Source: Eledone cirrhosa (Eukaryota). Taken from it: a stretch of DNA of 64,000 bases. A program made the position numbers and the translations under genes. The notes beneath the pieces were generated by a model that searched no databases, was not told the origin of the DNA, and was given only the letters and a program-made list of their open reading frames with translations. This document shows, piece by piece, positions 6,171 through 57,373 of this stretch (positions are counted from its first letter, which is position 1; each line of letters begins with the position of its first letter). The stretch is from the NCBI GenBank assembly GCA_964016885.1, contig OZ024753.1:27962001-28026000 (forward strand). The letters are read 5' to 3'.

Positions 6171-6207
<37 letters not shown>

Positions 6208-8723: not shown

Positions 8724-10266
8724 TATATAAATCTATATGTGTTTCGATGGTTTCTATATATTTATCTAGTTGTCTGTCTTTCTACTTACTTATCTATAAG
8801 ATTATATATATATATATATATATAAAATTATAAATGCGAGGAAAGAATAAACAAAGATATTCTTATTTTATCATCAAAGTCCCGACTGCAGTTTCACCAA
8901 TTGGTTTGCATCAATCATGCAATGGGATTCAGAACAAAGACATATATGGACCTATATTAATGCATATATGTTTAATAAGCTTACATTTAGTCTCACCATG
9001 AGTATTTTACAATGTAGTCATATCATAACTATCTCAGTCTCAGGCTAGGAAAGGAATATACATGTATTTCAGAATACATACACTGAAGTGGTCCTAGTGT
9101 TTGGCAGTATACTTCTAAAAAATACAACAAAATATATTAGTGATGCCTATAGTAGGCTGCCTACCTTAATCCCACTCCACTAGGAATATGGATTATTTGT
9201 TAGGTGGAACAGGGGAGGTAGAAAAATTATTTATGTAAAGGTCTTAGAGGTTTTTTTTTGGGGGGGGGGGGGGGATTAAGATGGTAGGCCATGATTTGAG
9301 GGAGATTTTACTGATATTTTTAGCAAGTCAATCAACCACGTAGAGATCTTCCACTTTGATTCATCAGTGTTTTCATTGTATGGTGAATGAAGAAACAGCC
9401 ATTTTCCCACTGATTAACAATTGTTGTTTAAAACAACATCTAAACACTAACCTAGGTTTTAATGGAAATAGGATAAACAAAAAAATATAGAGTGTATATA
9501 ATAAAATCTTGATTTTATTAAAGATATGCATTAGGGGATTTTATTCTTATAAATCAATTTTGAAACTTCAATCAATAAATTTGCTTAAATATTTATCTGG
9601 GTCAAACATTTATCTGGATCCAAAATAATAGAGATATTTCCAGTAAGCTACCTAAATAGCATTTTGGATTTATTGAAAAAGCTTTCAATCTTGTTGTTCA
9701 AAGATTTGTAGAAGGTTTATCCTAGAATTATCTGAAAGGATTTTGTGCAAAAAGCCATGTAAGTGAACAAAGGAACGAAACACTATTGAATTACGAAGTT
9801 CATAGAAGCAGGAACTTTATTCTTAGAAACCAGTGAGTAAAAAAAATCAATTGACCTTCTGACACTGATATGGATTCTCCTGTAGAAAGTTTTCAAGCAT
9901 TGCATACATGCATGATTATTATTGGTTTCTAATCAATCTATTCTATTGATGTTAGCGAGACAGATCTTTGGATAGTTCCGGCTGACTAGCAAAATTAATC
10001 ATTTCTTTTTAACTGCTGCTGGATTTCATACTCTATCACATGACAGTTTGTTGGTTCAGACGATTGATACCTCTCACTTGCAATGTCATCTTCTCCATAT
10101 TCTAGCAGCATGTTTGAGATTATCTTCAGTTCAAAGAAGGCACTGTGTAGAATGTTTGGGAAATTAACACTTATCATTGCCAACAATGGGAAACAAACGA
10201 ATCCAAATACCCAGTATTTAGTTATGTTACTGTGCTAATAAAGCTAGTAAAGCATTTTCTATTTGT

Positions 10267-10897: not shown

Positions 10898-11789
10898 CAG
10901 GGTGTGGACGATATTTGTTCACAATTTTCAACTGCTAATTTTATGCAAATTCTTTTTACTTCTGTTGTCACTCTTACCTTCATAAAAACAGTGACTATAT
11001 TTCCATTATTTATTTTCAGAATAATTGATTATGAATAATTTTGAACCTACAAATTTGTGAAAGAGACACAGAGTTCTTCTTGAAATCCGTGCCGGGAGGA
11101 CAAATAAGGCCAGAAGATCAACTCCCAGAACAACAGGTGACTCGCTGTCTCATCCAAAGACGTGCCCAGAGTCATGCAGACAAAGTTTCCAGCAACAACA
11201 TTGGTCTTAGGTGTCATCAGCAGTCAAGGTGACGTCATGCCACCTCACTTCTTCCCTGAGGGCCTCAAGCTGAACACCGATGGCTACAGCCGCGTTCTGA
11301 GCAAGGTAGTAAAGCCCTGGATCGACCAGGTAGCTGCAGGTAGGCCGTACGTGTGGCAGCAAGACTCAGCACCCTGCCATACCAGCCGAAAGACCCAAGC
11401 CTGGCTGTCAGAGAACTTCGTCGACCACACTTCACCTGACATCTGGCCTCCCAGCTCGCCTGACTGCAACCCCCTCGACTTCTTTGTGTGGGGCGCAGTG
11501 GAATGAGACACCAACTGATCTAGCTGCAATACGAAAGACGATCTGAAGGCCAGGATCACAAGTGTCTTTAGGGGCCTAAGTCAGGGGACAGTGACGAAGG
11601 CCTGTAGCAGGTTCCGAGGCTGCCATGAGGCCGTCATCAAAGCCAATGGTGGGTTTATCGAGTGAGATCGAAATAACAAGTCATGAAGACAAACTGACCC
11701 AAGTTTGATAAATAAATCTTAAAAAATAAAACGACTGTGTTATTTTTTCCTAGACAGTAATCTTGCGAACAAATATCGTCCGCACCCTG
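10898..11789 (+). mobile_element. Internally deleted Tc1/mariner DD37D (maT) transposon with transposase pseudogene
   Basis: 27-bp TIRs CAGGGTG(T/C)GGACGATATTTGTTC(A/G)CAA, TA flanks; peptide QQDSAPCH...WPPSSPDCNPLD has 37 residues between the last two catalytic Asp; stop codons present. Confidence 0.92.
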
Positions 11790-16813: not shown

Positions 16814-17430
16814 CACACTCACATACATATATGTATGTATGCATGTTTACAGAAAATATGTTGTTGGCAACATATTTTTAGATGTGTATTTTTAGTTCAC
16901 ACATATCAGTTAGTTGGTAAATATTTGTGCTAAGAGATGCTAGCTGGTGTATGTTGTCTACTAACTCACCGAAAGTGATTAAGACAACCAGCATTCCTCA
17001 GTTCCTCAGTATCAGCCCAATATATGTTTGTGTGTCTAGAGCATCATATAATAACCACTTTACTCCATGTGTCTTCAAACAGACCCAGGAATCATACATA
17101 ACTGTGTTAATGACAAACACTTCTGCGCATGTGCACAGATCTATTTGTGAATAATATATGTTTAGTTGTAGTGAAGGATTGTGATTACTATTATTATTAT
17201 TATTATTGGCAGTATCGGTAGAGCGTCAGACACCATGCTTTGCAGCAAAGAATTACGGCCCTTTATGTTCGGAGTTCAAATCTCACCAAGGTTAGCTTTG
17301 CCTTTTATACTTATGGGGTTGATAAATAAAGTACCAGTCATACACTGGGGTCAATTTAATCAACTTTCCCCTCTCCCCAAATTGCTGGCCTTGTGCCTAT
17401 AGTAGAAGTCATTATTATTATTATTATTGT

Positions 17431-17775
17431 GGAGGCACATGGCTTAGTGGTTAGAGCATTGGCCTTGCAATCGAAAGGTTGTGAGTTCAATTCTCACACC
17501 GAGTGATGTGTTGTTTCCTTGAGCAAGACACTTTATTTCACATTGCTCCAGTTTACTCAGCTGTAGAAATGAGATGATAGGGACTGGGGTCCTTATCATT
17601 CCATTGCAAAGTGGTCGTGTAGGTGTCACGGCAAAAAAGCACCCAGCACTCACTGTAAATGAAGTTGGTGTTAGGAAGGGCATCCAGCTGTAGAAATCAA
17701 GCCAGCATCAGTTCCCGTCCCACCCTTGCAAGCAGGGAAAAAGCGGACGTAAAATGAAATGATGATGATGATGAT
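17431..17775 (+). mobile_element. tRNA-derived SINE family 2 with RTE-derived tail
   Basis: TGGCTTAGTGG (A box), GAGTTCAATTC (B box), tail CCCACCCTTGCAAGCAGGGAAAAAGCGGACGTAAA(TGA)n. Confidence 0.9.
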
Positions 17776-23160: not shown

Positions 23161-23280
23161 CAAGGGAAATAACTCCCAGCGCCGCTAAGCGAAGGAAGAC
23201 GAGTTATCCATTATCACTAGCAACGGAGATTGTTTAGCAGCTATCCCAGCATGCAACTTGACGACCAACGAACAAGTAAC
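23161..23280 (+). promoter_or_regulatory. Candidate IFT74 promoter / non-coding first exon
   Basis: Locally CpG-containing non-repeat patch with an RFX-like half site TAGCAAC (23218-23224), a ZNF143/Staf-like ATCCCAGCATGCA (23243-23255) and a possible donor aa|gtaac at 23276. Confidence 0.3.
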
Positions 23281-23601: not shown

Positions 23602-24424
23602 ATAATAATTACGAAGACCAAATTCCGAAGAGGGCTCGATAAGGATATATATACACAGTTGTATAAAAAATATAATAATATAATTCTACACAACGAAAAC
23701 ACAAACGTATATAATATATACAAAGCAGGTAATACATACAACTAGGACCACATACAACAAAAGGGAGGCGAAAGAGGTGGGCAAACGGATAGATATATAA
23801 CGTAATGTTTACATTATTTAATTGTGGTTTACTTTGCCTTTCATCCTTCGGGGTTGATAAAATAAAGTACCAGTAATGTACTGGATATTTGCTGGCCTTG
23901 TGCCAAAAGTAGAAACAATTATTTAATTGTGGTTTCTTTCTGGTAGACTTCAGAAAAACAATTATTAGAGAGGTTTCCCAGTGCTCCTCCCGATATTGTT
24001 ATCTTTTGCTCTGGCAGTGGTTGGTCTGTCCACCCCTTTCGCCTGCCTTTAGTTGTACGTGGTCATAGATGTGTGTATTACCTGCTTGTATGTTGTTGGG
24101 TTTTTTCCCCTTTCCCTTTTCTTTCTTCTCTTTTTATATTATGATGACGGTTATGCTGATAAATAAAATATTTTTACTTCTTTATACATATTTGTAGTTC
24201 TTTATACACACACACACAGATATATATATATATATATATATAAGGTTTCACATTAAGGTCTTTATTGATTATACACACTTACGACTGTTTCACAGATGGG
24301 TGGCTCAGGTTCTATACTAATGCTATAGACCCGACTCCAGCCCGATCTTGTAATCAACCAAAGCTAAAATCTCATCTCATATATATGGATTGGCTGGATC
24401 TTTCATTTTTGCTGTTCGAAGGTT

Positions 24425-24757: not shown

Positions 24758-25215
24758 TTCTTTCAATTTTGAGTATATTTTTTTGACCGGCCACCTTACT
24801 GGTGGCAAGGTTGTAAAAGAAAAGAAATTGTCATCCCTTGAATCGCAAGAATGTTTTGCAAATTTTGAAGGTGCCAGCTATCGCAGGCATTTGTAGACTA
24901 TGAATTAGGGAGCTGCGCTTTTTGTCCGCAAATCCAAGTTCAGTCATACTTTGGTCCAAGCGGGTTGGTATATAACCCGTAGCTCCAATAATGATGGGTA
25001 TGAAGCTAAAGGTGTATCTTGGATACTGGATTTGTAAACTCCTCATCAATGGTCCATAGATGTCCTCCTTCTCCTGTATCTTTCTGACAACGTTTACATC
25101 AAGTGGGCAGCTGATCTCCACAACAGAACACGTTTTCAATGTGTGGTCCCAAACAACAATATCAGGCCGGTTGAGCTTTAATTTGGTGGCAGTTTTTATT
25201 TTCAGGTTCCACCAA
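24758..25215 (-). mobile_element. 3' fragment of an R4/Dong-like (RLE) non-LTR retrotransposon
   Basis: Peptide ...WNLKIKTATKLKLNRPDIVVWDHTLKTCSVVEISCP...PIIIGATG is a restriction-like endonuclease C-terminus; (TATG)n on both sides. Confidence 0.8.
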
Positions 25216-25229
25216 TATGTATGTATGTA

Positions 25230-25270
<41 letters not shown>

Positions 25271-26589
25271 GAGAGAGAGAGAGAGATCTACTCTTCCCTG
25301 TTGGCTTGGGTTAGACTGGTCGTCACAATCCCGGTCAGTTCATATTTAGACTTTCTAAATGGAGGACAATGTCTCGTTCGTACGTCCCATTGTCTTCCCA
25401 ACTTTCATGCTCTTAATTCATACTGTTGTCAACTTTTATGGCTGGGACCTCAGTAACGACTGCATGGGTAGGCCCTCACTGTCCCGTTTATTTTACACAT
25501 ACAGCAGCCGCTCATAGTAAGTCTTCCATGATGATAATTTGTTAATTTTCTTAAGTTTATTTACTAATGTGGCGATCAAGTATTCTTCCCCCCCCCCCAT
25601 TTATTGTAATGGCTTACATTTTTTAACACGATATCTTACTTTTATCCTTTCTTTCTTTCTTTCTTTCTTTCACTCATCTTTCACCTTCTCTAAGAGGCAC
25701 CAGACATTTTCCCTAACGTCACACAAAATTCTATATTTTTTTTGTAGCTTAACGGTTATAAATTAATGTTTTGTCTTTCCTCTTTTACTCCTGTGAACAG
25801 CGTTTGGCTTATGTCAGATGTTGTGGCCGTTGGTAGGGGTCGAAACTGCCTGTGTCCTTCGTTTGTATTTTTTTTTTTATCATTTTTTACGGTTTCCCCT
25901 TAAATTTTTTTTTTCGTTTTGTTTTGTTTCCGTTCATTGTCTTGTCCTTTCTTTGTTAATTCCCTTAAGTTTATGGTTTATCTGGCTCTTTCTGTAATCT
26001 CCTCAATGACATGTGTTCGTCTTTTCTGTTTCTCCTCTTCTTTTTGGTCTTAATCTATTTACTCCATCTTGGAGTAAACGGATTAGGACCAAAAAGAAGG
26101 GGAACACACTGAAAAGGGCATCCACCTGTAAAAAGCTTGCAAACAAAGGGTTGGAAAGACCCTTCAGCCATGTCAAGGACATGACAGCGTCCCTAGTGCT
26201 GGTGATCTACATGATAAACGTACCTATTACATGCTGTAAAGTGGTTGATAATACGAAGGGCATCCAGCTGTAGAAATCTTGCCAAACAAAGGGTCGGAAG
26301 GTCTCTTCAGTTGTGTCAAAGATATGAGAACTTCCTTTGTGCACTTGATAGAATGCGTGACTGTATGTAAGCAAGATGCAGCTCCCTCTCTCCCCCGGCC
26401 TGTCTGGGGCGTCAGTAATCCCACTTCAGTACTGACTTTGTCTATTTTGACTTGTTCAACATAATCTAAATGAGTTTTTCTTGTACCCATATGGATCAGA
26501 CACCAGGGTGTCACAAGTAGTATTCCTAATAGCAATAACTGATGCACATCATCTTCCTTCTTCAACAGTACCAAAACAAATTGAAAGGG

Positions 26590-27927: not shown

Positions 27928-27974
27928 CTTCTGGGAAGCAGCCAGGTACAGCCACACGACTGACTACAGCAATG
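27928..27974 (+). CDS. IFT74: IFT74 exon ((S)SGKQPGTATRLTTAM)
   Basis: tttcaag| ... |gtttgt; 47 nt, phase 1->0; resembles the PGTA/TAM motifs of the IFT74 N-terminus. Confidence 0.8.
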
Positions 27975-28194
27975 GTTTGTATTGTTCTAATACCCTGTTC
28001 TTCTATATCTACCCTCCCCAGCTCTTTGACTGCAGAATTTACCCTGATATAAATGTAGAGGGGGTAAAATATCTACCCTCTTCTTCTGCTGTATCTACCC
28101 TTCCTAGTTCTTCTGTTGCAATATCTAGAGTAGTAGTAGAGGAGGTAAAATATGTACCCTGTTCTTCTGCTATATTTACATTCCCTAGCTCTTC

Positions 28195-28450
28195 TACTGC
28201 AGCATCAGTTGTTAGCTGTCGGGACACTGCACTCTTCAAAATTTCCATGCTTCCCGAAATTCACCAACATTACACCTGATATTCCCCTCCACACATATTC
28301 CCTCATGATATACACACAGATACGCATGTATCTGTGTGTATATCATGACTCATACACTATTCACTTTTCTGACGTTTGTATATTACTTTATGTACTATAT
28401 ATGCACCTTTGATAAGTTGTAGTGCAGCTTAGCACTGTACACAATAATTT
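28195..28450 (+). mobile_element. 3' end of a CR1/Jockey-like LINE (second copy 35892-36112)
   Basis: Shared peptide end VSCRDTxxFxxSxLPxIxxHYT* and shared 3'UTR ending GTACACAATAATTT; clade assignment tentative. Confidence 0.55.
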
Positions 28451-29952
28451 TTGTTCATTATTATGATGTGTGTATGTTTCTGTCCACTAAATTTCACGCC
28501 AAAATTATTGTCCTGAAGGAAAAGTGTTGTGTCCAGAAAGACATTCACACACCTTCTGAGACCAGAACATTACATTTTATCTTTCCTGGATCAATAAAAT
28601 TAAATACCAGTCAGATCTTTGGGTCAATCTTAATCACCAACATCTCTTCCCAAAACTTACAGCCTTCTGACTGATTTATAAATCAATATAATTATTGATT
28701 AATTAGTGTCCCTGCTAGACAAGTAGTCTACTAATCTGTTTATATTAACACCAACATTTCATTAATACTGCATCTATCTATCATTATCATCATCCTTTAA
28801 CGTCCACTTTCCAAGCTAGCATGGGTTAGACAGATTCTCCCATTAGAGGCAAGTTGGGTTAGGTGACCATGTCTTGCTTATATAGAACTGTTTCTGGCTA
28901 GGTTTCTACAGTTGGATGCCCTTCCTAACACCAACCACATTTACAGTGAGTGCTGGGTGCTTTTTGTCGTGATTCCTACATGATAGTAACTTTGATGATA
29001 ATGATGATATGACGGTGATGGTGGTGGTAGTGGCAGCAGTAATGGTGGAGGTAGTTTTGGAATAACTATAGATTATGATGATGATGGAGGCAATGGTTTT
29101 GGTGTTAGTGGTAGTGGTGGTGGTGATGGTGGTACTGTAGTTGATGACAATGGTGGTGGTGGTGATGATGATGGTTTTGATGGTACTACAGCTAATGATG
29201 ACAATGGTGGTAGTTTTGGTGGTGGTCGTGATAGTTTTGATAGTACTGCAACTGATTATGACTATGGCAGTTGTGGTGGTAGTGTTGGTGACAGTGGTGG
29301 TTTTGATGGCAATGGTGATTGTGATAGGGACAATGGTGGTGTTGGTGGTAGTGGTGGTGGGCTGGTGGTGATTTTAATGATTCTGCAGCTGATGATGGTG
29401 ATGGCGGTGGTGGTAATGGTGGCGGTTTTGGTGGTACAGCAGCTGATGATGACAATGGTGGCAGCAGTGGTGATGGCGGTGTTAATAAAGACAGTGATTG
29501 CAAAAGTAATGATAATTATGATCATGATGCTAACGATGATGAAATATCAACAAGATAGAGCATGTTATGTTGTTCAACATAGCACTGCTTCTTATACTGA
29601 GCGATCATGACATGGCCTAAAAGACACTCCAACGATGGCCACCAATTCCATCTGTGGCACCAAACAACAAACCAACCATCTTTCAGTCGCAGTTATGTCC
29701 GACATCTTTGGGTGGCTAAATCTGCATTTTTTAAAAATACAATCTGTGTGTGAATGAGAGAGAGAGAGTACAAGTATTTACACACACACAAACCCACACA
29801 TATATATATTTATATATATAACATATGTGTGTGTGTATGTACATATGTATATATATATGTGTGTCTGTGTATGTATATATATTTATGTGTGTGCATCATC
29901 ATCATCATCATCATCCTCGTTTAACGTCCACTTTCCACGCTAGCATGGGTTA

Positions 29953-30009
<57 letters not shown>

Positions 30010-30151
30010 GTGTATATAATATATATATATATATATATGGTATATTTGTATGTATGTACATATGTCTGTTTATATGTGTGACCTGGCTACCTTCATAACA
30101 TGACAAGCATGCAAGCATGGAAAATAGTTGATATATATGGTGATGATAATG

Positions 30152-30194
<43 letters not shown>

Positions 30195-30774
30195 ATTAAA
30201 TTATATTGATATATAAAAATATCAACTCATTGACCATATATATATATAAATGTGTGTATATGTATGTGTGTGCATATATATTTGTGTGCATATGTAAATA
30301 TATGTATATATATATATATATATGTGTATATATATATGTGTGTGTATATGTATGTGTGTATATATATATGTATATGTATATGTGTGTATATATATATATG
30401 CATGTGTGTGTGTATATATGTCTATATATATATATATACGTGGTTCTGTCTTTGCGCGTAATTGTTTTTCACCGCTCCTATTAATGACGTATTATTCGTT
30501 TTTTTCCGTTCTTCGCCAGCGAACGTTTCCACGAACCAAAGTATCGTCTTCCTGTCTTCCTCTGGTTGCAACGTTTTTTGAAATATCCAGTTCTGCGTTT
30601 ACAGATTGACTTTGTTAGTTTCAGAAGATCCCGTTAAGGGTGAAAGCAGCGATTCTTTGCTTAAACTTTAATCTGTTATTTTAATAAATATTTGCTCTAC
30701 GGTTCTTATATATTTGATATATATTTATCCTTATCGAGCCCTCTTTGGATTTTAGTCTTCAAATTTATTATTAT

Positions 30775-30826
<52 letters not shown>

Positions 30827-31219
30827 TCATCATCATTTCATGATATATATATATATTTATGTATATGTATATATATATATATGTGTGTATGTATGTGTGT
30901 GTCTAGTTACTAATACTCATATAGTATTGGTTGGTTGTCGTGTTAAAATTCTCCAGTTGCTATATTAATCAATATAATCTATCTGTAATTGATTGAAAAT
31001 GTTGTAGTATTATTGTTATTTGGGACATATATTTATAGAAATTTGTTTCATTTAATTTCAGTTTAATAAATATTTTTACTTTGAAAATTAGTTGCCATTT
31101 CATTATTTTGTATATACACTATGAGATTTTGAAATAAGTAATAATTATAATAATTTTCCTCTGTAAGAGAGGTGAAAAGTTTATTCCTAATATTGCCTGT
31201 CATATGACCTGTAACTATA

Positions 31220-31270
<51 letters not shown>

Positions 31271-31277
<7 letters not shown>

Positions 31278-31692
31278 AAAAGATGGTTAAAAGAGTTCCA
31301 AGTATTTTATTATGCGCATTTCAAAAACAAATATCATCATGGGATGATATTTGCGTTCTCATCAGATAAAATAGGGAGACATAATGTGAAGCTTAAAAAA
31401 CACTTGCGAGCAGTGAAGTGTAAAATCAACATATCTGTATATGTTGATTTTTACACTTCACTGCTCGCAAGTGTTTTTTAAGCTTCATATTATGTCTCCC
31501 TATTTTATCTGATGAGAACGCAAATATCATCCCATGATGATATTTGTTTTTGAAATGCGCATAATAAAATACTTGGAACTCTTTTAACCATCTTTTGATC
31601 TTATATTATTTATACTCCAGTCCTATAAACTGTGGAGTGCTACTTATCCGATATTTTCATTGTTTTATTGTGCTACAATAAAACTCACCTCC
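31271..31692 (+). mobile_element. Fold-back hammerhead element in an IFT74 intron
   Basis: ~160-bp inverted arms (31275-31434 / 31439-31599), 4-nt loop, unique tail, (TA)n on both sides. Confidence 0.8.
31501..31571 (+). ncRNA. Type I hammerhead ribozyme
   Basis: TATTTTAT-CTGATGA-GAACGCAAATATCATC.CCAT.GATGATATTTGTTTTT-GAAA-TGCGCAT-A-ATAAAATA; an inverted copy lies on the minus strand at ~31300-31375. Confidence 0.88.
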
Positions 31693-31744
31693 TATATATA
31701 TATATATATATATATATACACAAGCATGGAAAAGGATGATGACA

Positions 31745-31945
31745 TCCAGAGTTGACATTGCACTCAGTGCTCCTGTGGGAGCCCCTACATGGACACACTG
31801 GAAGAGGAAGACCAAGGTTAACATATGTTGATGCCCTAAGGACAGACACTGGTCTGTTGGAGACGCAGGACATGGCAGCGATAATGAGGGACAGAGACCG
31901 CTGGAGAGAACTTGTCCATGGATCTCGGGAATTTTACCCGCCCTA
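31745..31945 (+). mobile_element. 3' fragment of a divergent RTE-like LINE
   Basis: VLLWEPLHGHTGRGRPRLTYVDAL...MRDRDRWR, a typical RTE C-terminus. Confidence 0.75.
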
Positions 31946-32090
31946 TAATATATATATGCATCGAAAAGGAACTAACTGTTGAAACGGGAACAGCTCAGCC
32001 GTCGGGGTCCTGACTCTTTTATATAACCATACTCTACTACCTGAAGTATTGAATACTCTTGTCTAACGAGTTTCTTACTGTTTCCATCTT

Positions 32091-32123
<33 letters not shown>

Positions 32124-32256
32124 TATCAATGCATGTATGTTCTGTATCACAGCCAAGGTTATTTAATAATCAGGGATATGCTGAATTTTAGTTTTGTCTA
32201 AGTAATTATTTGCTATTTTGATGTATTCTTCATATGTCTTCCTTTTTTTCCTACAG

Positions 32257-32314
32257 AACCCAAGTATGTCTCGAAGTGGTGGTCGTATTGGGAACCATTC
32301 ACTCGCTGGAGGAG
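32257..32314 (+). CDS. IFT74: IFT74 exon (NPSMSRSGGRIGNHSLAGG)
   Basis: ttcctacag| ... |gtcagt; 58 nt, phase 0->1. Confidence 0.82.
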
Positions 32315-34975: not shown

Positions 34976-35028
34976 AGTAGTGTAGAAACATATATAAGCA
35001 AGATGCAGAGCACTCTGTAGAGTGGGGA

Positions 35029-35496
35029 CATATGTAAGATGCTGAATACTATGTAGAGTGAGGACATATGTAAGATGCTGAATACTATGTAGAGTGAGGA
35101 CATATGTAAGATGCTGAATACTATGTAGAGTGAGGACATATGTAAGATGCTGAATACTATGTAGAGTGAGGACATATGTAAGATGCTGAATACTATGTAG
35201 AGTGAGGACATATGTAAGATGCTGAATACTATGTAGAGTGAGGACATATGTAAGATGCTGAATACTATGTAGAGTGAGGACATATGTAAGATGCTGAATA
35301 CTATGTAGAGTGAGGACATATGTAAGATGCTGAATACTATGTAGAGTGAGGACATATGTAAGATGCTGAATACTATGTAGAGTGAGGACATATGTAAGAT
35401 GCTGAATACTATGTAGAGTGAGGACATATGTAAGATGCTGAATACTATGTAGAGTGAGGACATATGTAAGATGCTGAATACTATGTAGAGTGAGGA
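35029..35496. repeat. 36-bp minisatellite, 13 identical units plus degenerate flanks
   Basis: CATATGTAAGATGCTGAATACTATGTAGAGTGAGGA at 36-bp period. Confidence 0.97.
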
Positions 35497-35758
35497 CATA
35501 TGTAAGCAAGATGCTGGGCACTCTGTAGTGTGCGGAAAGATATGTAAGCAAGATGCTGGTGCCTACCCTATCCAAGAGATCAGTAGAACCCAGCCAACCT
35601 TTGCTAGAAGGGAGCATGGATGTTAAATGATAAATAGTAGGGAAGATACTTGTTATTGTAGTTGTTTTTCTTCTTCACCCTTTACTTTCCCATTTTGTTG
35701 TCTGACACACCACTTGTAATGTCACCACATTCAGATTAAGAATGTTTGTCTGTTCCAG

Positions 35759-39208: not shown

Positions 39209-39331
39209 GATCCAGAATTGAAGAAGAAATATTCCAAAATGAAAGAGATTAACGAGACTTATGTTGATGCAATGGAAAAAAACCAACAAACAATTGATGA
39301 ACTAAACACTAAAATCCAAGTTTTAAAGGAG
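39209..39331 (+). CDS. IFT74: IFT74 exon (DPELKKKYSKMKEINETYVDAMEKNQQTIDELNTKIQVLKE)
   Basis: ggcag| ... |gttggt; 123 nt, phase 0->0. Confidence 0.88.
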
Positions 39332-39862
39332 GTTGGTTTTAATTTTTGTTCTTTTTATGTGTGTACTTAACCTATGCTTTAGTAGGGAAAATGACTTTAA
39401 AACATGTTCCTTGGGGCCAAAGAAGACCTGGGTAGAGTTTGTGAGAGCTGATCTCAAATCACTGAAACTCCAAGAAGAGATGACAATAGACTACGAGTGG
39501 AGGGATGCTGTGCTGGAAAACCCACATACAATAATGACGATGATGCCATGTGTGTGTTGTAAGAGGCAACTAAAAGGGTTGGTGCCAAGAGGACTATTCA
39601 TTTGTGTCATAAGTATGACAACATCCCTTGTGTAGGGAATCTACATGATAAATGCACCCAGTACACTCTGTAAAGTGGTAGGTGATAGGAAGGACATCCA
39701 GCCACAGAAAAACGGCCATACAAAGAGTTGAGACAGCTATTCAGCTATATGACATGACAACCTCTCTAGTACTGGTACTGTGATAAAATGTACTTGGTCA
39801 AGTGAGGGATCACAAGTAAGATGTGGGATCACAAGTAAGATGAGGGATCACAAGTAAGATGC

Positions 39863-42182
39863 GGGAAGCAGAGGAAAGAAAGTTCAAGCATGTTCTACAA
39901 CGTGAGGACCAAAAACGTGAGGTGTTCAGGATTGCCAGGCAATGTGTCAAGGAAAACCGTGATATTGTCGGGGAGAAGTGTGTGCTTAACGATGATGGCA
40001 TACTTGCTATCACCGATGCTGATAAGAAGGTAGCTTGGAAGTGTCACTACGAAAGGCTTCTAAATGAGGAGAACAAATGGGAGAAAGACAGTCTCCCCCA
40101 CATCGACCCAATAGAGGGACCAGCAGTGTTAGTCCAGGGTAGTACAATAAGCAAGGCAATCAAAGATATGAAGACGAGTAAGGCGGCTGGTCCTTCGGAA
40201 ATAGTTGCTGAGATGCTGAAGGCATCTGGTTCGGTGGGACACACCATGGTCACCCGGATAGTTAACCAAGTCGTACAGAATGGGGTTGTTCCGAAGGACT
40301 GGCATAGCAGCATCATCGTTAACTGCTATAAGGGAAAAGGAGATGCCCTAGATAGGAGTAACTATAGAGGCATTAAATTAATCGACCAGGTCATGAAGGT
40401 CACGGAAAAAGTAATAGCGCAACTAATCAGAGAGAGAATTGATCTAGATGAAATGCAGTTCGGGTTTGTGTCAGGCAAAAGTACCACAGACGCTCTTTTC
40501 ATTGTACGACAACTACAGGAGAAGTACCTAGCTAAAAGTAAACCCCTATACTTAGCTTTCGTCGACTTGGAGAAAGCCTTCGACAGAGTCCCCCGTTCCA
40601 TTATCTGGTGGTCTCTTAGAAAACTAGGTGTTGACGAATGGCTTGTGAGAGCTATACAAGCCATGTATAAAGAAACAGTCAGTAAGATTAGAATTAACAA
40701 CGAATATAGTGAAGAGTTTAGCGTAAAAGTTGGTGTCCATCAGGGCTCTGTTCTTAGCCCCCTACTATTTATTATTGCCCTTCAGGCTATAACAGAGGAG
40801 TTCAAGACCGGCTGCCCATGGGAACTCCTATACGCAGATGATCTAACGCTCATAGCTGAATCAATGACCGAACTAGAGAAGAAATTCCAAACATGGAAGC
40901 ACGGCCTAGAATCAAAAGGCCTTAAAATTAACCTGGCTAAGACAAAAGTTCTAGTTTGTAGGAAAGAAAATATGGCGGCAGTCCCATCTGGGAAATGGCC
41001 ATGCTCAGTGTGTAGGAAAGGCGTAGGTAGAAACTCCATTTTATGTCCCAAATGCAAAGTATGGGTGCATAAAAGATGTAGTGGGATCACAGGTAAGCTA
41101 ACTAAGAACATAGATTTTACATGTGGCCGGTGCTCTGGTGCAATAAGCAGCAGCAAGTGCCCACAAAATACTAGCTCCTTCAACTGCGCAGAGGGTTCTA
41201 TAGAAATAGTGGACAGCTTCCGTTACCTGGATGACAAAATCAGCAGTGGGGGAGGGTGCTCTGAAAGTACAGTAGCTAGAGTCAGAACTGGATGGAAAAA
41301 GTTCAGAGAGCTTATACCACTATTAGCCGCTAGAGGGTTCTCCCTAAAAATGAAAGGCAGGTTATACGATGCCTGCATACGAACAGCAATGCTGCATGGC
41401 AGTGAGACCTGGGCATTGTGTGCAGAGGATATACGCAGACTAGAGAGGAACGAAGCTTGCATGCTCCGCTGGATGTGCAATAGTAATATACGTGAACGGC
41501 AAAGCATAAACGAACTAAGGAAAAAATTAGAAATAAGAGGGATCAGATGTTGTTTACTCGAGAGAAGGCTACGTTGGTACGGTCACGTGATGCGCATGAA
41601 AGACGACAGCTGTATAACAAAGTGCAGGGCAATAAAGATAGACGGTAGCCACGGAGTAGGCAGACCCAGAAAAACCTGGGACGAGCTGATAAACTCCGAC
41701 CTCACACGCTTACACCTCTCCAAGACAATGTCACTGGACCGAGACCTTTGGCGGTACTCAGTAATAGAGAAGACCCGCCTTACCTAAATACAAAGTAAAA
41801 ACCTACTACAGTCAGTAGGCATCTCTATCAAAACACCCCCCCGTCCCACCACCTCCACCCCATCCACACCGCCCCTTTCAATGTAAAGTTATGTTGGTCC
41901 CACAACATCCAGGCCGAAACAAATGAGATCGTGTAGGTGTCACGACAAAAAAACACACAGTCCACGCTGTAAATGTGGCCGTGTAGGCAACACGGTAAAA
42001 ACCTCCCAGCCCCACACTGTAAATGTGGTTGGTGTTAGGAAGGGCATCCAACTGTAGAAAACCCGCCAGACAGTCCTATGCGAGCAAGACAACCACTCTT
42101 GCCTCAAGTGGGAAAACCCCCGTCCAAACCCATGCAAGCGTGGAACACGGACGCTAAACCTGATGATGATGATGATGATGAT
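39863..42182 (+). mobile_element. 5'-truncated RTE LINE subfamily A with intact RT ORF (39859-41787)
   Basis: YRGIKL, QFGF, FVDLEKAFD, GVHQGSVLSPLLF, YADD, then C4HC3 finger; (GAT)n tail. Confidence 0.96.
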
Positions 42183-45561: not shown

Positions 45562-47200
45562 CATCATCATCATCATCATCATCATCAGGTTTAGCGTCCG
45601 TGTTCCACGCTTGCATGGGTTTGGACGGGGGTTTTCCCACTTGAGGCAAGAGTGGTTGTCTTGCTCGCATAGGACTGTCTGGCGGGTTTTCTACAGTTGG
45701 ATGCCCTTCCTAACACCAACCACATTTACAGTGTGGGGCTGGGAGGTTTTTACCGTGTTACCTACACGGCCACATTACAGCGTGGACTGTCTGGCGGGTT
45801 TTCTACAGCTGGATGCCCTTCCTAACACCAACCACATTTACAGTGTGGGGCTGGGAGGTTTTTACCGTGTTGCCTACACGGCCACATTTACAGCGTGGAC
45901 TGTGTGTTTTTTGTCGTGACACCTACACGATCTCATTTGTTTCGGCCTGGATGTTGTGGGACCAACATAACTTTACATTGAAAGGGGCGGTGTGGGTGGG
46001 GTGGAGGTGGTGGGACGGGGGTGTGTTTTGATAGAGATGCCTACTGACTGTAGTAGGTTTTTACTTTGTATTTAGGTAAGGCGGGTCTTCTCTATTACTG
46101 AGTACCGCCAAAGGTCTCGGTCCAGTGACATTGTCTTGGAGAGGTGTAAGCGTGTGAGGTCGGAATTTATCAGCTCGTCCCATGTTTTTCTGGGTCTGCC
46201 TACTCCGTGGCTACCGTCTATCTTTATTGCCCTGCACTTTGTTATACAGCTGTCGTCTTTCATGCGCATCACGTGACCATACCAACGTAGCCTTCTCTCG
46301 ACTAAACAACATCTGATCCCTCTTATTTCTAATTTTTCCCTTAGTTCGTTTATGCTTTGCCGTTCACGTATATTACTATTGCACATCCAGCGGAGCATGC
46401 AAGCTTCGTTCCTCTCTAGTCTGCGTATATCCTCTGCACACAATGCCCAGGTCTCACTGCCATGCAGCATTGCTGTTCGTATGCAGGCATCGTATAACCT
46501 GCCTTTCATTTTTAGGGAGAACCCTCTAGCGGCTAATAGTGGTATAAGCTCTCTGAACTTTTTCCATCCAGTTCTGACTCTAGCTACTGTACTTTCAGAG
46601 CACCCTCCTCCACTGCTGATTTTGTCACCCAGATAACGGAAGCTGTCCACTATTTCTATAGAACCCTCTGCGCAGTTGAAGGAGCTAGTATTTTGTGGGC
46701 ACTTGCTGCTACTTATTGCACCAGAGCACCGGCCACATGTAAAATCTATGTTCTTAGTTAGCTTACCTGTGATCCCACTACATCTTTTATGCACCCATAC
46801 TTTGCATTTGGGACATAAAATGGAGTTTCTACCTACGCCTTTCCTACACACTGAGCATGGCCATTTCCCAGATGGGACCGCCGCCTTATTTTCTTTCCTA
46901 CAAACTAGAACTTTAGTCTTAGCCAGGTTAATTTTAAGGCCTTTTGATTCTAGGCCGTCCTTCCATGTTTGGAATTTCTTCTCTAGTTCGGTCATTGATT
47001 CAGCTATGAGCGTTAGATCATCTGCGTATAGGAGTTCCCATGGGCAGCCGGTCTTGAACTCCTCTGTTATAGCCTGAAGGGCAATAATAAATAGTAGGGG
47101 GCTAAGAACAGAGCCCTGATGGACACCAACTTTTACGCTAAACTCTTCACTATATTCGTTGTTAATTCTAACCTTACTGACTGTTTCTTTATACATGGCT
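45562..47200 (-). mobile_element. 5'-truncated RTE subfamily A, antisense
   Basis: ORF 46072-47196 near-identical to the 39859 ORF; internal duplication in 3'UTR; (TA)n flanks. Confidence 0.95.
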
Positions 47201-47854
47201 ATATATATTATATATATTATATATATATATATATAGTATATATATATATATAGTATATATATATATATATATAGTATATATATATATATTATATATATAT
47301 ATTATATATATATTATATATATATATATTATATATATATATTATATATATATTATATATATATATATTATATATATAGTATATATATATATATATTATAT
47401 ATATAGTATATATATATATATATTATATATATAGTATATATATATATATATTATATATATAGTATATATATATATATATTATATATATAGTATATATATA
47501 TATATATTATATATATATTATATATATATTATATATATTATATATATATTATATATATATATTATATATATATATATATTATATATATATATATTATATA
47601 TATTTTTTGCTTTTGAGAAACCACTGGTAAATGAAATAATTGCCTTATGTTGTTTATTACATAACTATTAAGCTCTGTTGCGTACATAGAGCAGTCTTTT
47701 TTCCTGGACTTTTCCGACGGAATTACTTCATTTATTTATATATATATATATATTATATATATATATATATTATATATATATATATATTATATATATATAT
47801 ATATTATATATATATATATATTATATATATATATATATTATATATATATATATA

Positions 47855-49183
47855 TGTCACTACGAGAGGCTACTGAATGAGGAGAATAAATGGGAGAAGG
47901 ATAGTCTCCCCCAGATCGATCCAATAGAGGGACCAGCAGTGTTAGTTGAAGGTAGTATAATAAGTAAGGCAATCAAAGATATGAAGACGGGTAAGGCGGC
48001 TGGGCCTTCGGAAATAGTTGCTGAGATGCTGAAGGCCTCTGGAACGGTGGGACACACCATGGTCACCCGGATAGTAAACCAAGTCATACAGAATGGGGTT
48101 GTTCCGAAGGACTGGCGTAGCAGCATCATCATTAACTGTTACAAGGGTAAAGGAGACGCCCTAGATAGGAGTAACTATAGAGGGATTAAATTAATCGACC
48201 AGGTCATGAAGGTCACGGAAAAAGTAATAGTGCAACTAATCAGAGAGAGAATCGATCTAGATGAAATGCAGTTCGGGTTTGTGTCAGGAAAAAGTACCAC
48301 AGACGCTCTTTTCATTGTACGACAACTACAGGAGAAGTACCTAGCTAAAAGTAAACTCCTCTACTTAGCTTTCGTCGACTTGGAGAAAGCCTTCGACAGA
48401 GTCCCCCGCTCCATTATCTGGTGGGCTCTTAGAAAACTAGGTGTTGACGAATGGCTTGTGAGAGCTATACAAGCCATGTATAAAGAAACAGTCAGTAAGA
48501 TTAGAATTAACAACGAATATAGTGAAGAGTTTAGCGTAAAAGTTGGTGTCCATCAGGGCTCTGTTCTTAGACCCCTACTATTCATTATTGCTCTTCAGGC
48601 TATAACAGAGGAGTTCAAGACCGGCTGCCCATGGGAACTCCTATACGCAGATGACCTAACGCTCATAGCTGAATCAATGGCCGAGCTAGAGAAGAAATTC
48701 CAAACATGGAAGCACGGCCTAGAGTCAAAAGGACTTAAAATTAACCTGGCTAAGACCAAAGTACTAGTTTGTAGGAAAGAAAATAAGGCGGCGGTTACTT
48801 CCGGGAAATGGCCATGCTCAGTGTGTAGGAAAGGCGTAGGTAGAAACTCCATTTTATGTCCCAAATGCAAAGTATGGGTGCATAAAAGATGTAGTGGGAT
48901 CACAGGTAAGCTAACTAAGAACATAGATTTTACATGTGGCCGGTGCTCTGGTGCAATAAGTAGCAGCAAGTGCCCACAAAATACTAGCTCTTTCAACTGC
49001 GCAGAGGGTTCTATAGAAATAGTGGACAGCTTCCGTTACCTGGGTGACAAAATCAGCAGTGGGGGAGGGTGCTCTGAAAGTACAGTAGCTAGAGTCAGAA
49101 CTGGATGGAAAAAGTTCAGAGAGCTTATACCACTATTAGCCGCTAAAGGGTTCTCCCTAAAAATGAAAGGCAGGTTGTATGAT
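47855..49183 (+). mobile_element. Internal fragment of RTE subfamily A, joined at its 3' side to an inverted SINE head (49184-49257)
   Basis: ORF 47939-49195 breaks after KGRLYD. Confidence 0.93.
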
Positions 49184-49334
49184 CACCCGGTCTGAGAATT
49201 GAACTCACAACCTTTCGATTGCAAGGCCAATGCTCTAACCACTAAGCCATGTGCCTCTATAAGCATATATATATAATATATATATATTATATATATATAT
49301 ATATAATATATATATATTATATATATATATTATT

Positions 49335-51911
49335 AACCTGGAGAAGAAAGATCTGGAAGCTGAAAGTCCCCTCAACCAGTAACAGATTTAAAGATATTTT
49401 ACTCAACGCCTACGACAGTAAAGAAGAACAGATAGAGACATTTAACGTAGAAGAGAACTGGGAGTTCCTAAAAAATAACTTACTAGAGGCGACGGATGAG
49501 GTTTGTGGCTGGAGTAAGACCTCAAGCAGGAGGAGAGTGACTTGGTGGTGGAACAATAAGGTAGATGAAGCAGTCAAGGCCAAGAGACAGGCATGGAAAG
49601 AATGGAAGAACGGGGGGAGCAGGGTACATTACATAGAGACCAAGAGGGAAGCTAGGCGACAAGTATACTTAGCTAGGAGGGAAGCAGAGGATAGAAAATT
49701 CAAGCATGTTTTACAACGTGAGGACCAGAAACAGGAGGTATTCAAGATTGCGAGGCAGTGTGTCAGAGATAGTTGTGATGTCATTGGAGAGAAGTGTATC
49801 CGGAATGATAAAGGTGAGCTTGCCCTCACAAGTGCTGAGAAGAAAGATGCATGGAAGAGTCATTATGATAGATTACTAAATGAGGAGAATGCATGGGAAG
49901 AAGAGACCCTACCCCACGTAGACCCTATAGAGGGACCAGCAGTACAAGTCAGCGGCAGCGTAGTAAGTAAGGCAATCAGAGATATGAAGATAGGGAAGGC
50001 AACCGGTCCATCGGGTATAGCTGCCGAGATGCTGAAGGCATCTGGGTCTGTAGGTCACACTATAACCACACGTATCGTTAACCAGGTAATACTAGAGGGG
50101 GCCATACCAAAAGATTGGTGCAGTAGCATCATTGTCAACTGCTACAAAGGTAAAGGCGATGCACTAGATAGAGGAAACTATAGAGGTATAAAGTTGATGG
50201 ACCAGGTCATGAAAGTAACAGAAAGAGTTATAGCACAGCTGATTAGGGACCGGGTGAATATAGACGAGATGCAATTTGGGTTTGTTCCAGGGAAAGGCAC
50301 CACTGATGCGCTCTTCCTTGTGAGGCAATTACAGGAAAAGTACCTAGCTAAAAGTAAGCCACTCTACTTGGCATTTGTCGACCTTGAGAAAGCCTTTGAC
50401 AGAGTTCCACGTGCAGTAATCTGGTGGGCTCTTAGAAAACTAGGAGTAGATGAATGGCTTGTGAAAGCGGTACAAGCCATGTATAGGGGAGCAGTCAGCA
50501 AAGTTAGGATTGGCAATGAGTATAGCGAGGAATTTAGCGTACAGGTTGGGGTCCACCAGGGCTCTGTTCTTAGCCCTCTCCTGTTCATCATAGTCCTGCA
50601 GGCAATAACGAAGGAGTTTAAGACCGGATGCCCATGGGAACTCCTGTATGCTGATGACCTCGCACTCATAGCTGAATCTATGGTAGAACTAGAGAATAAA
50701 TTCCAAACCTGGAAGCAGGGACTAGAGAGAAAGGGCCTCAAAGTCAACATGACAAAGACTAAGGTCCTTATAAGTAGACGAGAAAACAGAACCCAGATCC
50801 CCTCAGGGAAATGGCCTTGCTCAGTATGTAGGAAAGGTGTAGGTAGGAACTCCATTCTTTGCCCCAAATGCAAACAATGGGTACACAAGAGATGTAGCGG
50901 GATCTCAGGAAGCTTAATTAAGAATGTAGGATTCACATGCAGCAGCTGTGCTGAAACAGCAAGCAAACAGCCACAGGAAACAAGTACCACCAATCTCTGG
51001 GAGGGCCCTGTAGAAACAGTAGACAGCTTCTGCTACCTAGGTGACCGAATTAGCAACGGAGGTGGGTGCTCAGAAAGTACAATAACTAGGGTAAGAACGG
51101 GATGGAAGAAGTTTAGGGAACTACTACCACTGCTAGCTGCAAAAGGCTTCTCCCTCAGAATGAAAGGCAGACTGTATGATGCGTGTATCCGAACAGCGAT
51201 GTTGCATGGTAGTGAGACCTGGGCGCTGAAGGTGGAAGACTTACGTAGATTAGAGAGAAACGAAGCCTGCATGCTCCGATGGATGTGTAACAGTAATATA
51301 CGTGAACGACAAAGCATAAATGAATTGAGAGAGAGACTGAGCATAAGAGGAATCAAATGCTGCGTGCAGGAGAGGCGGTTACGCTGGTATGGGCATGTGA
51401 TGCGTATGAAGGATGACAGCTGCATAAAAAGGTGCAGAGCACTAGAAGTTGATGGAAACCGCGGAGTGGGGAGACCCAAGATGACTTGGGATGAGGTGAT
51501 AAAAGCCGACCTTACCCAACTACACCTCTCAAAGTCAATGACACACGACCGTGACTTCTGGCGTCACGCAGTAATACAGGGTACCCGACCTCCCATGGGT
51601 ACATGCTGAAGCATATAAACAATATGCCCCCCCCCCCCCCGCAAGGTGGTCGTGGAGGTGCCACGGCAAAAAAGCACCCAGCCCACACTGTAAAGTGGAC
51701 GTGTAGGCGCCACGAAAAAGCACCCAGCACTCACTGTAAATGAGGTTGGTGTTAGGAAGGGCATCCAGCTGTAGAAATCAAGCCAGATCAGTTCCTGTAT
51801 GAGCAAGGCATGGTCAGCCGACCAGACACTGCCCACAACAGGACAACCCGTCTAACCCATGCTAGCGTGGAAGAACGGACGTAAAACGGTGATGATGATG
51901 ATGATGATGAT
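49335..51911 (+). mobile_element. 5'-truncated RTE LINE subfamily B with uninterrupted ORF to 51609
   Basis: WWN motif, RT with YADD, C4HC3 finger, distinct 3'UTR, (GAT)n tail. Confidence 0.96.
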
Positions 51912-52016
51912 ATATATATATATATATTATATATATATATATAATATATATATATATATATTATATATATATATACATATATTATATATATATATATAAT
52001 ATATATATATATATAT

Positions 52017-52048
<32 letters not shown>

Positions 52049-52223
52049 ATATATATATTATATATATTATATATATATTATATATATATATTATATATAT
52101 ATATATAATATATATATATATATATTATATATATATATATATATATTATATATATTATATATATATTATATATATATATTATATATATTATATATATATA
52201 TTATATATATATATATATATATA

Positions 52224-55200
52224 ATCAGCACAGCAATAAATAGGAACAACAACAAAATATGAAGACTTCGCATCTCAGAGTTGCAACACTTAATGTTCGC
52301 ACTCTCAGAGGTAGATCTGCAGAAATAGCAGAGATGCTGGAGAGAAGGCATGTGGATGTGTGCTGCGTGCAAGAGCTGAAATGGAGAGGTGCCTCTGTGA
52401 GACTAGTCGTAGGCAAGCGTCTTAGCTATAAGCTATTCTGGGTAGGTAAGGATGATGGGCTAGGGGTAGTAGGCATTTTCCTGGCTGAGAAATGGATCAA
52501 TAAGACAATAGAGGTAGTTCGAGTTAGTAATCGAATAATTAAGCTTAGATTAGTTGTAGGTAGGAGACTACTGACAATCATCTCGGCCTATGCTCCCCAA
52601 GCAGGCCTAGGCAAAGATGAGAAAGACTGCATTTATGAGCAACTTTTGCAAACAACCGCAATGACAGAGGACGGAGACATCGTTATGCTAGCAGGAGACT
52701 TCAATGGTCATGTTGGACAGCTCCAGGATGGTTACACTGGGGTACATGGTGGGCACGGTTACGGTTCAAGAAATGAAGAAGGAGTGAGACTTCTTGAATT
52801 TTGTGATGCGGGTACATTGACTATTTGCAACACAAACTTCCAGAAACCTGCCAATCACCTAATAACCTACAAATCTGGTGAGCACATAAGCCAGATTGAC
52901 TTCCTGCTAGTTAGGCAGCAGGACAGGCAGATAGTGTCTAATACCACGGCATACCCTGGGGAAGAATGTACCCCACAGCATAGGTTAGTTGTTAGTGATA
53001 TCTCAGTAAGCAAGAGATGGAATGAGACATATAGGAAGGTGTATTGAGAAGAAAGGTCTGAAGCTAAAAGACCTTTCACTAAAATACAAATTTAGGAAAG
53101 CCCTTCAAGATGTATATGACGAAAAAGAAGATGATTTAGAGACGTATGACATAGATAATAACTGGAATTTCTTACGTGACAACTTGCTGCAGGCTACTGA
53201 TGAAACCTGTGGCTGGAGCAGAGCTCCAACCAGACAGAGAGTGACCTGGTGGTGGAACAGCACAGTAGATAAGGCTATTAGAGACAAAAGACTTGGAAGG
53301 CTTGGAAAAAGGGTGGGAGTAGGGAAGAATATACAGCCACTAAGAGAGAAGCTAGACATCAGGTGTACTTAGCACGCAGGGAGGCAGAGAGTAGGAGGTT
53401 TGCCAATGTTCTGCGACGGGAAGATCAGAGGCGTGCGGTGTTCCACATTGCAAGGCAGTGTGTCAATGCAAATCAGGATGTTGTTGGAGATAAATGTGTC
53501 CGGGATGATGCCGGTGTACTTAGTGTCACGAATGATCAGAAAAAGGAGGCCTGGAAATGTCATTATGAGAGACTGATGAATTTGGAGAACGAATGGGAGA
53601 GAGAGAAATTACCCTTGGTGGATCCGACAGAGGGACCAGCTATTGAGATTGATGAATATAGGGTCCAAGAGGCGATTAGGGAAATGAAAAATGGTAAGGC
53701 TGCCGGACCATCGGGAATAGTTGCTGAGATGCTGAAGGCATCAGGGGACGTAGGCACTAAACTGGTTGCACGCATCATCAATCAGACTATATATGGTGGT
53801 GTCATACCCAAAGACTGGTGCAGCAGTATTCTCATAAATTGCTACAAAGGTAAAGGGGATGCTTTGGAGAGGAGCAATTATAGGGGTATAAAACTGATAG
53901 ATCAGGTTATGAAAGTGGCAGAAAGGATTTTAGCACAACTAATTAGAGAAAGGGTCAAACTAGATGAGATGCAGTTTGGTTTTGTGCCTGGGAAAAGTAC
54001 AACAGATGCCCTCTTCTTGGTGAGACAATTGCAAGAGAGGTTCTTAGAGAAGAATAAGCCACTATACTTAGCCTTTGTTGACCTAGACAAGGCCTTTGAT
54101 AGGGTACCCCGATCTGTCATCTGGTGGTCCCTAAGGAAGCTAGGTGTTGAGGAATGGCTTGTGAGGACAGTGCAAACTTTGTACAGAGGTACTCTCAGTA
54201 AAGTCAGGGTAGGAATGGAGTTTAGTGAGGAATTCCAGATACAAGTAGGAGTACATCAGGGTTCGGTCCTTAGCCCGCTCTTGTTCATTATAGTCCTCCA
54301 AGCCATAACAGAGGAGTTTAAGACTGGCTGTCCATGGGAACTTCTCTATGCTGACGATCTGGTTCTTATAGCAGAATCAGTAGAGGAGCTAGAGAATAAA
54401 TTCTGGCTATGGAAACAGCAGTTGGAAGCAAGAGGACTGAGAGTGAATCTAGCTAAGACAAAAGTGTTGATGAGTAGAAAAGAGGACTAAACCCTGATTC
54501 CGTCAGGGAAATGGCCATGTTCGATATGCAGAAAAGGAACTGGCATAAATTCTATAAAATGCACACAATGCAGATCCTGGGTACACAAGAGATGTAGCGG
54601 GATAGCAGGCAAACTAACAAGTAGGGAGAAATATGTATCCAGTAGATGTACAGGGAAATTAGACAGTAGAAGTCGCACTGATAGACACATTTTTCAAATG
54701 CAAGAGGGCGCTATAAAAGTGGTGGATAGCTTCCGGTACCTAGATCAGATTAGCATGGGAGGAGGGTGTTCCGAGGCCATAGTATCTAGAATAAGGACGG
54801 GTTGGAAGAAGTTTAGGGAGCTGCTTCCTCTGTTGACGAAGAAGGGTTCTCCCTGTGTACGAAAGGCCGGTTGTATGATGCCTGTGTGAGGAGCGCGATG
54901 CTGCATGGTAGTGAGACATGGGCAGCAACTGCAGAGGATATGCGACGGCTGGAGAGAAATGGGGCAAGCATGCTCCGTTGGATGTGCAGTGTAAATGTGC
55001 GTGAACGACCCAGCATAAATGTGTTGAGAGAGAAACTGTGTCTGAGAGGGATAGAATGTAGTGTACGGGAGAGGAGACTGAGGTGGTATGGACATGTGAT
55101 GCGCATGGAGGATGACCAATGGGTGAAGAAGTGCCAAGAATTTACAGTTGAAGGAAGACGTGGTAGAGGTAGACCACGAAATAGAGGTAGACCACGAAAA

Positions 55201-55355: not shown

Positions 55356-55499
55356 TATATATTATATATTATATATATATATATATATTATATATATATA
55401 TATATATTATATATATATATATTATATATATTATATATATATATTATATATATATATATTATATATATTATATATATTATATATATATTATATATATTA

Positions 55500-55844
<345 letters not shown>

Positions 55845-56183: not shown

Positions 56184-56197
56184 ATATTATATATATA

Positions 56198-56230
<33 letters not shown>

Positions 56231-57341: not shown

Positions 57342-57373
<32 letters not shown>

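Follow-up and report, generated by a model that had tools for sequence, protein, structure and literature searches.

A hairpin-shaped repeat of 422 bases (E2, positions 31271-31692) lies between (TA)n runs inside an intron of IFT74 in the stretch of Eledone cirrhosa DNA that we analysed (64,000 nucleotides, here called the window), and it carries a hammerhead ribozyme motif on each strand. The locus raises the question of how such a ribozyme came to be present in inverted duplicate within a gene, and whether the inversion serves to keep it silent. A sequence-only reading of this DNA had proposed that the inversion is an intrinsic off-switch that lets such insertions persist in genes. We found that E2 is a real and well preserved hammerhead fold-back of a known kind. 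It is likely an insertion of a Penelope-like element (PLE) that consists of pLTR sequence only, with an inversion that would have arisen at integration and not by selection for an off-switch.

We compared the two halves of E2 and recovered the claimed fold-back of about 160 bp: two arms face each other across the 4-nt loop CTGT (Table 1). Inside the arms the differences come to a single substitution, where G at 31386 faces T at 31488, and an extra T at 31452; outside 31275 the pairing frays into (TA)n. The ends of E2 are not inverted copies of each other, with a tail lying outside the repeat on one side only; the tail measures 78-93 nt, a range that reflects fraying of the arm end over 31600-31614. 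The (TA)n on both sides hides any target-site duplication from reading, and such duplications are optional in PLEs. A tandem-repeat search found no head-to-tail array at the locus, where the arrangement is head to head.

Table 1. Coordinates of E2, its parts, its host intron and two related elements in the 64-kb window.
Feature	Position	Strand	Basis or remark
Left (TA)n microsatellite, likely insertion target	31216-31270	.	TRF, 27 copies
Inverted arm without tail, bears the minus-strand hammerhead copy	31275-31434	-	Inverted-repeat comparison
Minus-strand type I hammerhead motif	31303-31373	-	CUGAUGA 31365-31359, H17 31311
Loop of 4 nt, head-to-head junction	31435-31438	.	Self-complementary ATAT either side
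Ribozyme-sense arm	31439-31599	+	
Plus-strand type I hammerhead motif	31501-31571	+	Predicted cut after A31563
One-sided tail	31600-31692	+	ACTCCA...GAGTGC motif common to E1, E2 and E3; terminal hairpin
Right (TA)n microsatellite	31693-31718	.	
IFT74 intron containing E2	27975-32256	+	GT...AG ends read from sequence
E1, related fold-back	3062-3492	+	Arms about 3064-3224 / 3246-3406, tail to 3492
E3, related fold-back	62889-63272	+	Arms about 62889-63029 / 63038-63181, tail to 63272

Using the Argonauta hians IFT74 protein in a tblastn search we obtained 14 exon matches on the plus strand between 26676 and 44757. E2 falls between the matches at 27930-27974 and 32257-32295, which confirms the claimed location in an IFT74 intron. 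The exon at 39209-39331 was 80% identical to A. hians IFT74, the sole match among six candidates, and a PDB sequence search with two single exons gave 0 matches. IFT74 residues after about 350 had no match in the 64-kb window, and the gene likely continues past 64000. Upstream, positions 23200-23235 are a possible IFT74 promoter or first exon, with what we take to be an X-box-like half site. On the IFT74 sense strand E2 contains AATAAA hexamers at 31563-31568, overlapping the predicted cut site, and at 31677-31682; hairpins would mask both, and such hexamers are common by chance in AT-rich DNA.

Stem I of the plus-strand hammerhead (31501-31508/31564-31571) has 8/8 Watson-Crick pairs, all of them A-U. 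The core CUGAUGA lies at 31509-31515 and GAAA at 31552-31555, and stem II spans 31516-31551 with an 11-bp perfect core at 31521-31531/31536-31546. The palindrome ATGCGCAT occupies 31555-31562 and is followed by H17, A31563. The copy on the minus strand, with its CUGAUGA running from 31365, is identical. Each motif that the sequence-only reading had described is thus present: the perfect 8-bp stem I, the stem II core, the intact CUGAUGA and GAAA, the palindromic stem III and the second copy on the minus strand. That reading had omitted the closing pair of stem II, which is G10.1-U11.1 instead of G-C (or alternatively A-U, if the G is taken as an extra unpaired base), a C-U mismatch at stem II position 4, and the fact that the palindrome yields merely a 2-bp stem III in a monomer. 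Of the features of a type I hammerhead, E2 has the CUGANGA core, GAA, A15.1-U16.1, H17, stems I and II and a palindromic stem III that, as computed, permits a two-molecule fold. It lacks the G10.1-C11.1 pair and a stable stem III in the monomer.

An Rfam search reported no hammerhead in E2, neither at the gathering score nor among the 4 matches up to E 10. With a structural descriptor the 64-kb window yielded 4 matches versus a mean of 0.07 per shuffle (30 shuffles); three of these fall among the fold-back elements, and one is a weak match at 26245. A sequence pattern gave 5 matches in the window versus 0 in 100 shuffles, although the pattern was built from the elements and so matches them by construction. 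A pattern scan of metagenomes hit 17 loci with a stem I partner in 0/17 and a best blastn E of 0.009, and we treated these loci as chance. Two further CUGA-GAAA matches in the window, at 6068-6103 in a degenerate solo relative and at 1590-1660 in a decayed inverted repeat, failed the structural descriptor. By eye, decayed motifs like minimal hammerheads of other families were seen on the minus strand at 5148-5211 and about 24260-24305.

E1 and E3 share the build of E2, namely (TA)n, inverted arm, hammerhead-bearing arm, tail and (TA)n, at pairwise identities of 60-81% over arm plus tail. In all three the inverted copy is joined head to head, (TA)n flanks both sides, and a one-sided tail of about 80-90 nt is present. 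The ACTCCA...GAGTGC motif begins 51-58 nt after H17 in each, and in 3/3 elements the inverted arm stops roughly 5-15 nt ahead of ACTCCA. The first IFT74 exon match lies about 23 kb downstream of E1, whose plus hammerhead is intact and whose minus copy is broken at core C3 (3171). E3 likely lies in the long IFT74 intron. In each of the three hammerheads, stem II contains a pyrimidine-pyrimidine mismatch close to its base (C-U, C-U and C-C for E1, E2 and E3), which may be a family feature; it is identical in both arms of E2 and of E3, which indicates that it was inherited from the donors. A solo, degenerate hammerhead-like relative was seen between (TA)n runs at about 5958-6173; its AT palindrome is expanded and it lacks an inverted arm. 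All four copies have the same orientation, on the plus strand, and four are too few for an orientation test. About 30 nt of E2, 31454-31483, are missing from E1 and E3 in the alignment. The junctions of the three elements lie near a homologous GTATGT-like motif (3258-3264, 31439-31445 and, on the minus strand, 63030-63037) that resembles a splice donor; no acceptor common to the three was seen by eye. The motif hinted at an intron in the pLTR, which PLE pLTRs can contain.

This build corresponds to that of PLE insertions, which are described as carrying a 5'-truncated copy in inverted orientation and a one-sided tail, with a preference for (TA)n or microsatellite targets (PMC8557442). E2 has the inverted 5'-truncated copy joined head to head, the AT-rich (TA)n target, and the dispersal of a repeat, with three diverged elements in the window and high summed contig depth in a sequencing run, X1. 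The (TA)n preference is stated there for Naiads, which are without canonical hammerheads (PMC8557442). The tail is usually reported as 30-40 bp (PMC8557442), about half that of E2. Elsewhere, PLE head-to-head junctions are reported to carry palindromes (PMC3846280), S. mansoni has paired hammerheads that lie on opposite strands at a spacing of 100-700 bp (PMC4209133), and Penelope-like families are annotated in Octopus vulgaris (PMC13282606). Like the canonical EN+ PLE unit as presented by Craig et al. 2021 (PMC8557442) and Arkhipova et al. 2013 (PMC3846280), E2 thus combines a junction palindrome, a one-sided tail and a hammerhead in pLTR sequence. Unlike that unit it has no ORF, and both of its arms contain the whole hammerhead. 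We scanned 45 of 56 candidate frames near E1-E3 and found no RT or GIY-YIG match, and E2 was rejected as an autonomous PLE for lack of an ORF with telomerase-like RT plus GIY-YIG in these frames. With no Penelope ORF nearby, we infer PLE descent from the build.

The ribozyme itself resembles the PLE type I hammerheads of Cervera and de la Pena 2014 (PMC4209133) in its intact core, long stem II, short palindromic stem III and dimer-type fold. It differs from them in an all-A-U stem I of 8 bp and a palindrome of 8 nt, longer than in minimal forms, as well as in G10.1-U11.1 replacing the conserved G-C and in the missing Rfam model match. As in the anole Poseidon element PAc (Frangieh et al. 2024, PMC11167929), E2 retains sequence on both sides of the ribozyme cut and has an AC-rich 3' end, two apparent start points bounding the tail and an AT-rich target. 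The tail of E2 is longer than that of PAc, and while the PAc ORF starts at stem II (PMC11167929), the E2 frame from the core ATG, read from the sequence, ends after 13 codons. E2 also recalls non-LTR retrozymes (PMC7229834; bioRxiv 10.64898/2026.07.22.740005), which are described as short, AT-rich and non-coding, with a type I hammerhead and a proposed PLE origin. However, retrozymes are head-to-tail tandems that release circular RNA (same sources), whereas E2 is head to head, so that one transcript never holds two sense ribozymes. Since no head-to-tail tandem array is present, we rejected E2 as a non-LTR retrozyme. A literature search covering titles and the starts of abstracts, with few subscription papers, listed no paper describing this octopod family or testing an inverted arm as a ribozyme off-switch. 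Helitron-associated elements have short inverted repeats, and a Helitron-associated element was set aside on inverted-repeat length.

A mobile DNA element could also produce such a structure. If E2 were a MITE or foldback DNA transposon, it would move as a whole and its hammerhead would be incidental; the long inverted repeat, the TA flanks, the missing ORF and the abundance of the repeat would all fit. We nevertheless consider this very unlikely, because the inverted repeats are not at both termini and the one-sided tail lies outside them, and because three diverged elements, each with near-identical arms, point to a fresh inversion at each insertion.

How abundant is the family? In run X1 the summed contig depth was 81,000-976,000 in six element bins versus 5.4-8.8 in four unique bins; this depth is not a copy number, and X1 probably represents the source sample and hence is not independent. 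The E2 sequence is an abundant repeat in the source organism, of the order of 10^4-10^5 arms if the X1 depth is taken at face value. In two other, related organisms the same bins at 85% likeness reached 0-538 (X5, where the depth of an orthologous exon was about 15) and 54-577 (X6), and close copies look few in both. At the outer arm end the X1 depth was about 724,000 plus 603,000 for the two arms, against 459,000 in the early tail. This roughly threefold arm-to-tail ratio fits, as a rough measure, many copies with two arms and one tail. Family depth appears to drop inward of about 31470.

Both arms of E2 carry the same rare allele. At 31491 E2 has T where the family has C in 473,750 of 473,927 of the X1 depth, and at the mirror position 31383 it has A where the family has G in 738.8 of 738.8 (from 40 of 129 variant rows shown). 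This indicates that the arms share a single donor or that one was copied from the other. At the sole arm-arm substitution it is 31386 G that differs from the family, where A makes up 651 of 739 of the X1 depth.

We also considered whether the palindrome is an artefact of long-read assembly. The (TA)n runs in the window are noisy and the region of E3 has many homopolymer indels; moreover, among the contig pieces listed none spans the E2 junction, and none of the 15 joints listed out of 3853 lies in E2. An artefact is nonetheless extremely improbable: the end point of the arm and the one-sided tail are common to three independent elements, the arms of E1 differ at 8/161 positions by substitutions only, and the build has already been published.

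The inversion is probably a by-product of insertion in which two cDNAs were joined at their 3' ends. In the mechanism that we propose, the PLE endonuclease would cut both strands of the (TA)n target, and reverse transcription would be primed from each DNA end, with uncleaved pLTR RNA of a single donor as template. Synthesis would begin at two different internal positions: the far end of the tail, and a point shortly ahead of the ACTCCA motif. Both cDNAs would stop 5' of the hammerhead and then join head to head through microhomology, and in IFT74 pre-mRNA the product would form one long hairpin that buries the ribozyme. For the anole PLE protein, cutting and extension of both target strands, a bias towards AT-rich DNA, use of uncleaved RNA, and reverse transcription from two internal sites that bound the tail are reported (PMC11167929). 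E2 retains about 125 nt upstream and 129 nt downstream of the predicted cut, as expected for an uncleaved template (PMC11167929).

The junctions bear on the joining step. Judged by homology with the E1 sense strand, the 8-nt loop of E3 is an extension of the tail-less arm; it lies between two CG dinucleotides. The spacer of E1, and probably that of E2, appears instead to extend the tailed arm. Two joined cDNAs explain the E3 loop and the E1 and E2 spacers alike, although a single loop, situated where homopolymer indels are numerous, underlies this step. The same origin could have taken another route, in which a short self-complementary stretch lets a single cDNA fold back and prime the inverted arm itself. 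Self-priming has been proposed for rotifer Penelope (PMC3846280) and fits E1 and E2 as well as two-cDNA joining does; the near-perfect palindrome of E2 with its 4-nt loop between ATAT motifs and the rare allele common to both arms agree with it. The E3 loop, a single case, would be unexpected from fold-back of a tail-bearing cDNA, and an extra reason would be needed for the same copy end point in three elements. We therefore regard self-priming as possible but somewhat doubtful. The cited papers leave the route of Penelope inversion undecided, and many junctions in an abundant family such as this could settle it between two primed ends and self-priming.

Whichever route joined the arms, an inversion formed at integration leaves the question of what the inverted arm does to the ribozyme. 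We folded E2 computationally; all energies given here are predictions for 37 C without proteins. On either strand the entire element is computed to fold at -281 kcal/mol, every hammerhead helix has a pairing probability of 0.0, and forcing the active hammerhead costs 96 kcal/mol. The claim that the fold-back would pair over the ribozyme and sequester it is thus borne out computationally. In either direction of transcription, synthesis of the antisense arm precedes that of the ribozyme arm, so that the fold-back would be shut in both orientations.

The premise that without the arm the sense ribozyme could cut the intron was not supported. Without the arm the active monomer fold is disfavoured by 6.1 kcal/mol for the motif alone and by 11.0 kcal/mol for the right arm plus tail, and the pairing probability of stem III is 0.001. 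For two copies of E2 the minimum-energy fold is a double hammerhead, 10.9 kcal/mol below two monomers, and the GC-containing palindrome duplex is computed at -10.5 kcal/mol. For E1 and E3, which have AU-only palindromes, the two-copy minimum-energy fold is not the double hammerhead. From these folds a lone copy of the E2 ribozyme is predicted to be almost inactive even if the inverted arm is absent, and it is predicted to need a second copy or the element's protein to cut. Among published results on related ribozymes, a single minimal PLE hammerhead of S. mansoni gave no detectable cleavage (PMC4209133), dimers of minimal PLE hammerheads cleave little (PMC4209133; review PMC6765202), and an anole PLE hammerhead did not cleave unless the PLE protein was present (PMC11167929).

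Under the proposed off-switch, solo copies in sense orientation would be lost because they cut pre-mRNA, and fold-backs would silence themselves and persist in genes. The barrier that the arm adds argues for this, and in a very abundant family two molecules could in principle pair in trans through the GC-containing palindrome, which the arm would block. Three of the four copies in the 64-kb window are fold-backs, and tandem retrozymes are reported as under-represented in Xenopus introns (bioRxiv 10.64898/2026.07.22.740005). But the monomer is already predicted to be off, and minimal PLE hammerheads cleave poorly even as dimers (PMC4209133, as above). Inversions are a generic PLE product (PMC8557442; PMC3846280), and E1 is also a fold-back yet lies upstream of the IFT74 exon matches. 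Since inversion is standard in PLE insertions and present in E1, selection for an off-switch is not needed. Moreover, a solo insertion in antisense would be harmless, whereas the inversion puts a ribozyme on the transcribed strand. Selection of this kind is therefore improbable. Of the original proposal, the burial of the ribozyme by the arm stands; as modelled, the off-switch follows physically from the hairpin, and a need or selection for it is without support here. The inverted arm could matter solely by blocking trans pairing with sibling RNAs.

As a single insertion E2 is ordinary. From its structure and by analogy, its hairpin is a plausible substrate for ADAR or Dicer; editing of intronic repeats in coleoids is documented (PMC9068888). 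A broader scenario would be a recent, lineage-restricted burst that left tens of thousands of self-silencing hairpins, in which the fold-back blocks trans-dimer cleavage and persists in introns, sense solos are purged, and the hairpins form a major class of perfect dsRNA for the editing and small-RNA machinery; we think this unlikely. Near-perfect 160-bp intronic hairpins together with heavy A-to-I editing of repeats offer a test set for tolerance of ribozymes by folding shut. Run X4, from the same organism, may be RNA: its depth in exon bins was 9.4 and 11.7, and two unique intron bins were uncovered. The X4/X1 depth ratio was 0.002-0.005 in element bins, 0.06-0.11 in a neighbouring LINE fragment and 0.10-0.14 in SINE bins, and A>G/T>C places over the whole stretch numbered 19/19 in X4, not above the 21/17 of X1; these X4 comparisons were not used as evidence, since rare variants are lost from contigs and expression is poorly reflected by summed depth.

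The window holds further features. Exon-like stretches with splice-site-like ends occur on the plus strand at approximately 5528-5632, 9731-9763 and 9780-9835, and to judge from their sequence they suggest another gene upstream of IFT74. A transposase fragment at 11141-11506 has a weak DDE_3 match under the curated cut-off (E 0.005). A tRNA-like match at 17440-17497 heads a repeat at 17430-17769 that recurs at 55844-56183 with 96% identity, likely a tRNA-derived SINE. On the minus strand, 24831-25310 encodes a 159-aa frame with no Pfam match, presumably the restriction-like endonuclease end of an R4/Dong-type LINE. A dense LINE nest, which we take to be RTE-like, occupies 39844-41787 and 45784-61407 with RVT_1 and PHD-like matches; many copies are broken by (TA)n. 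The nest lies inside the long IFT74 intron and includes an AP-endonuclease frame at 52244-53044. Minisatellites were found at 3781-4242 (93-bp unit, 5 copies) and at 35000-35506 (36-bp unit, 14 copies).
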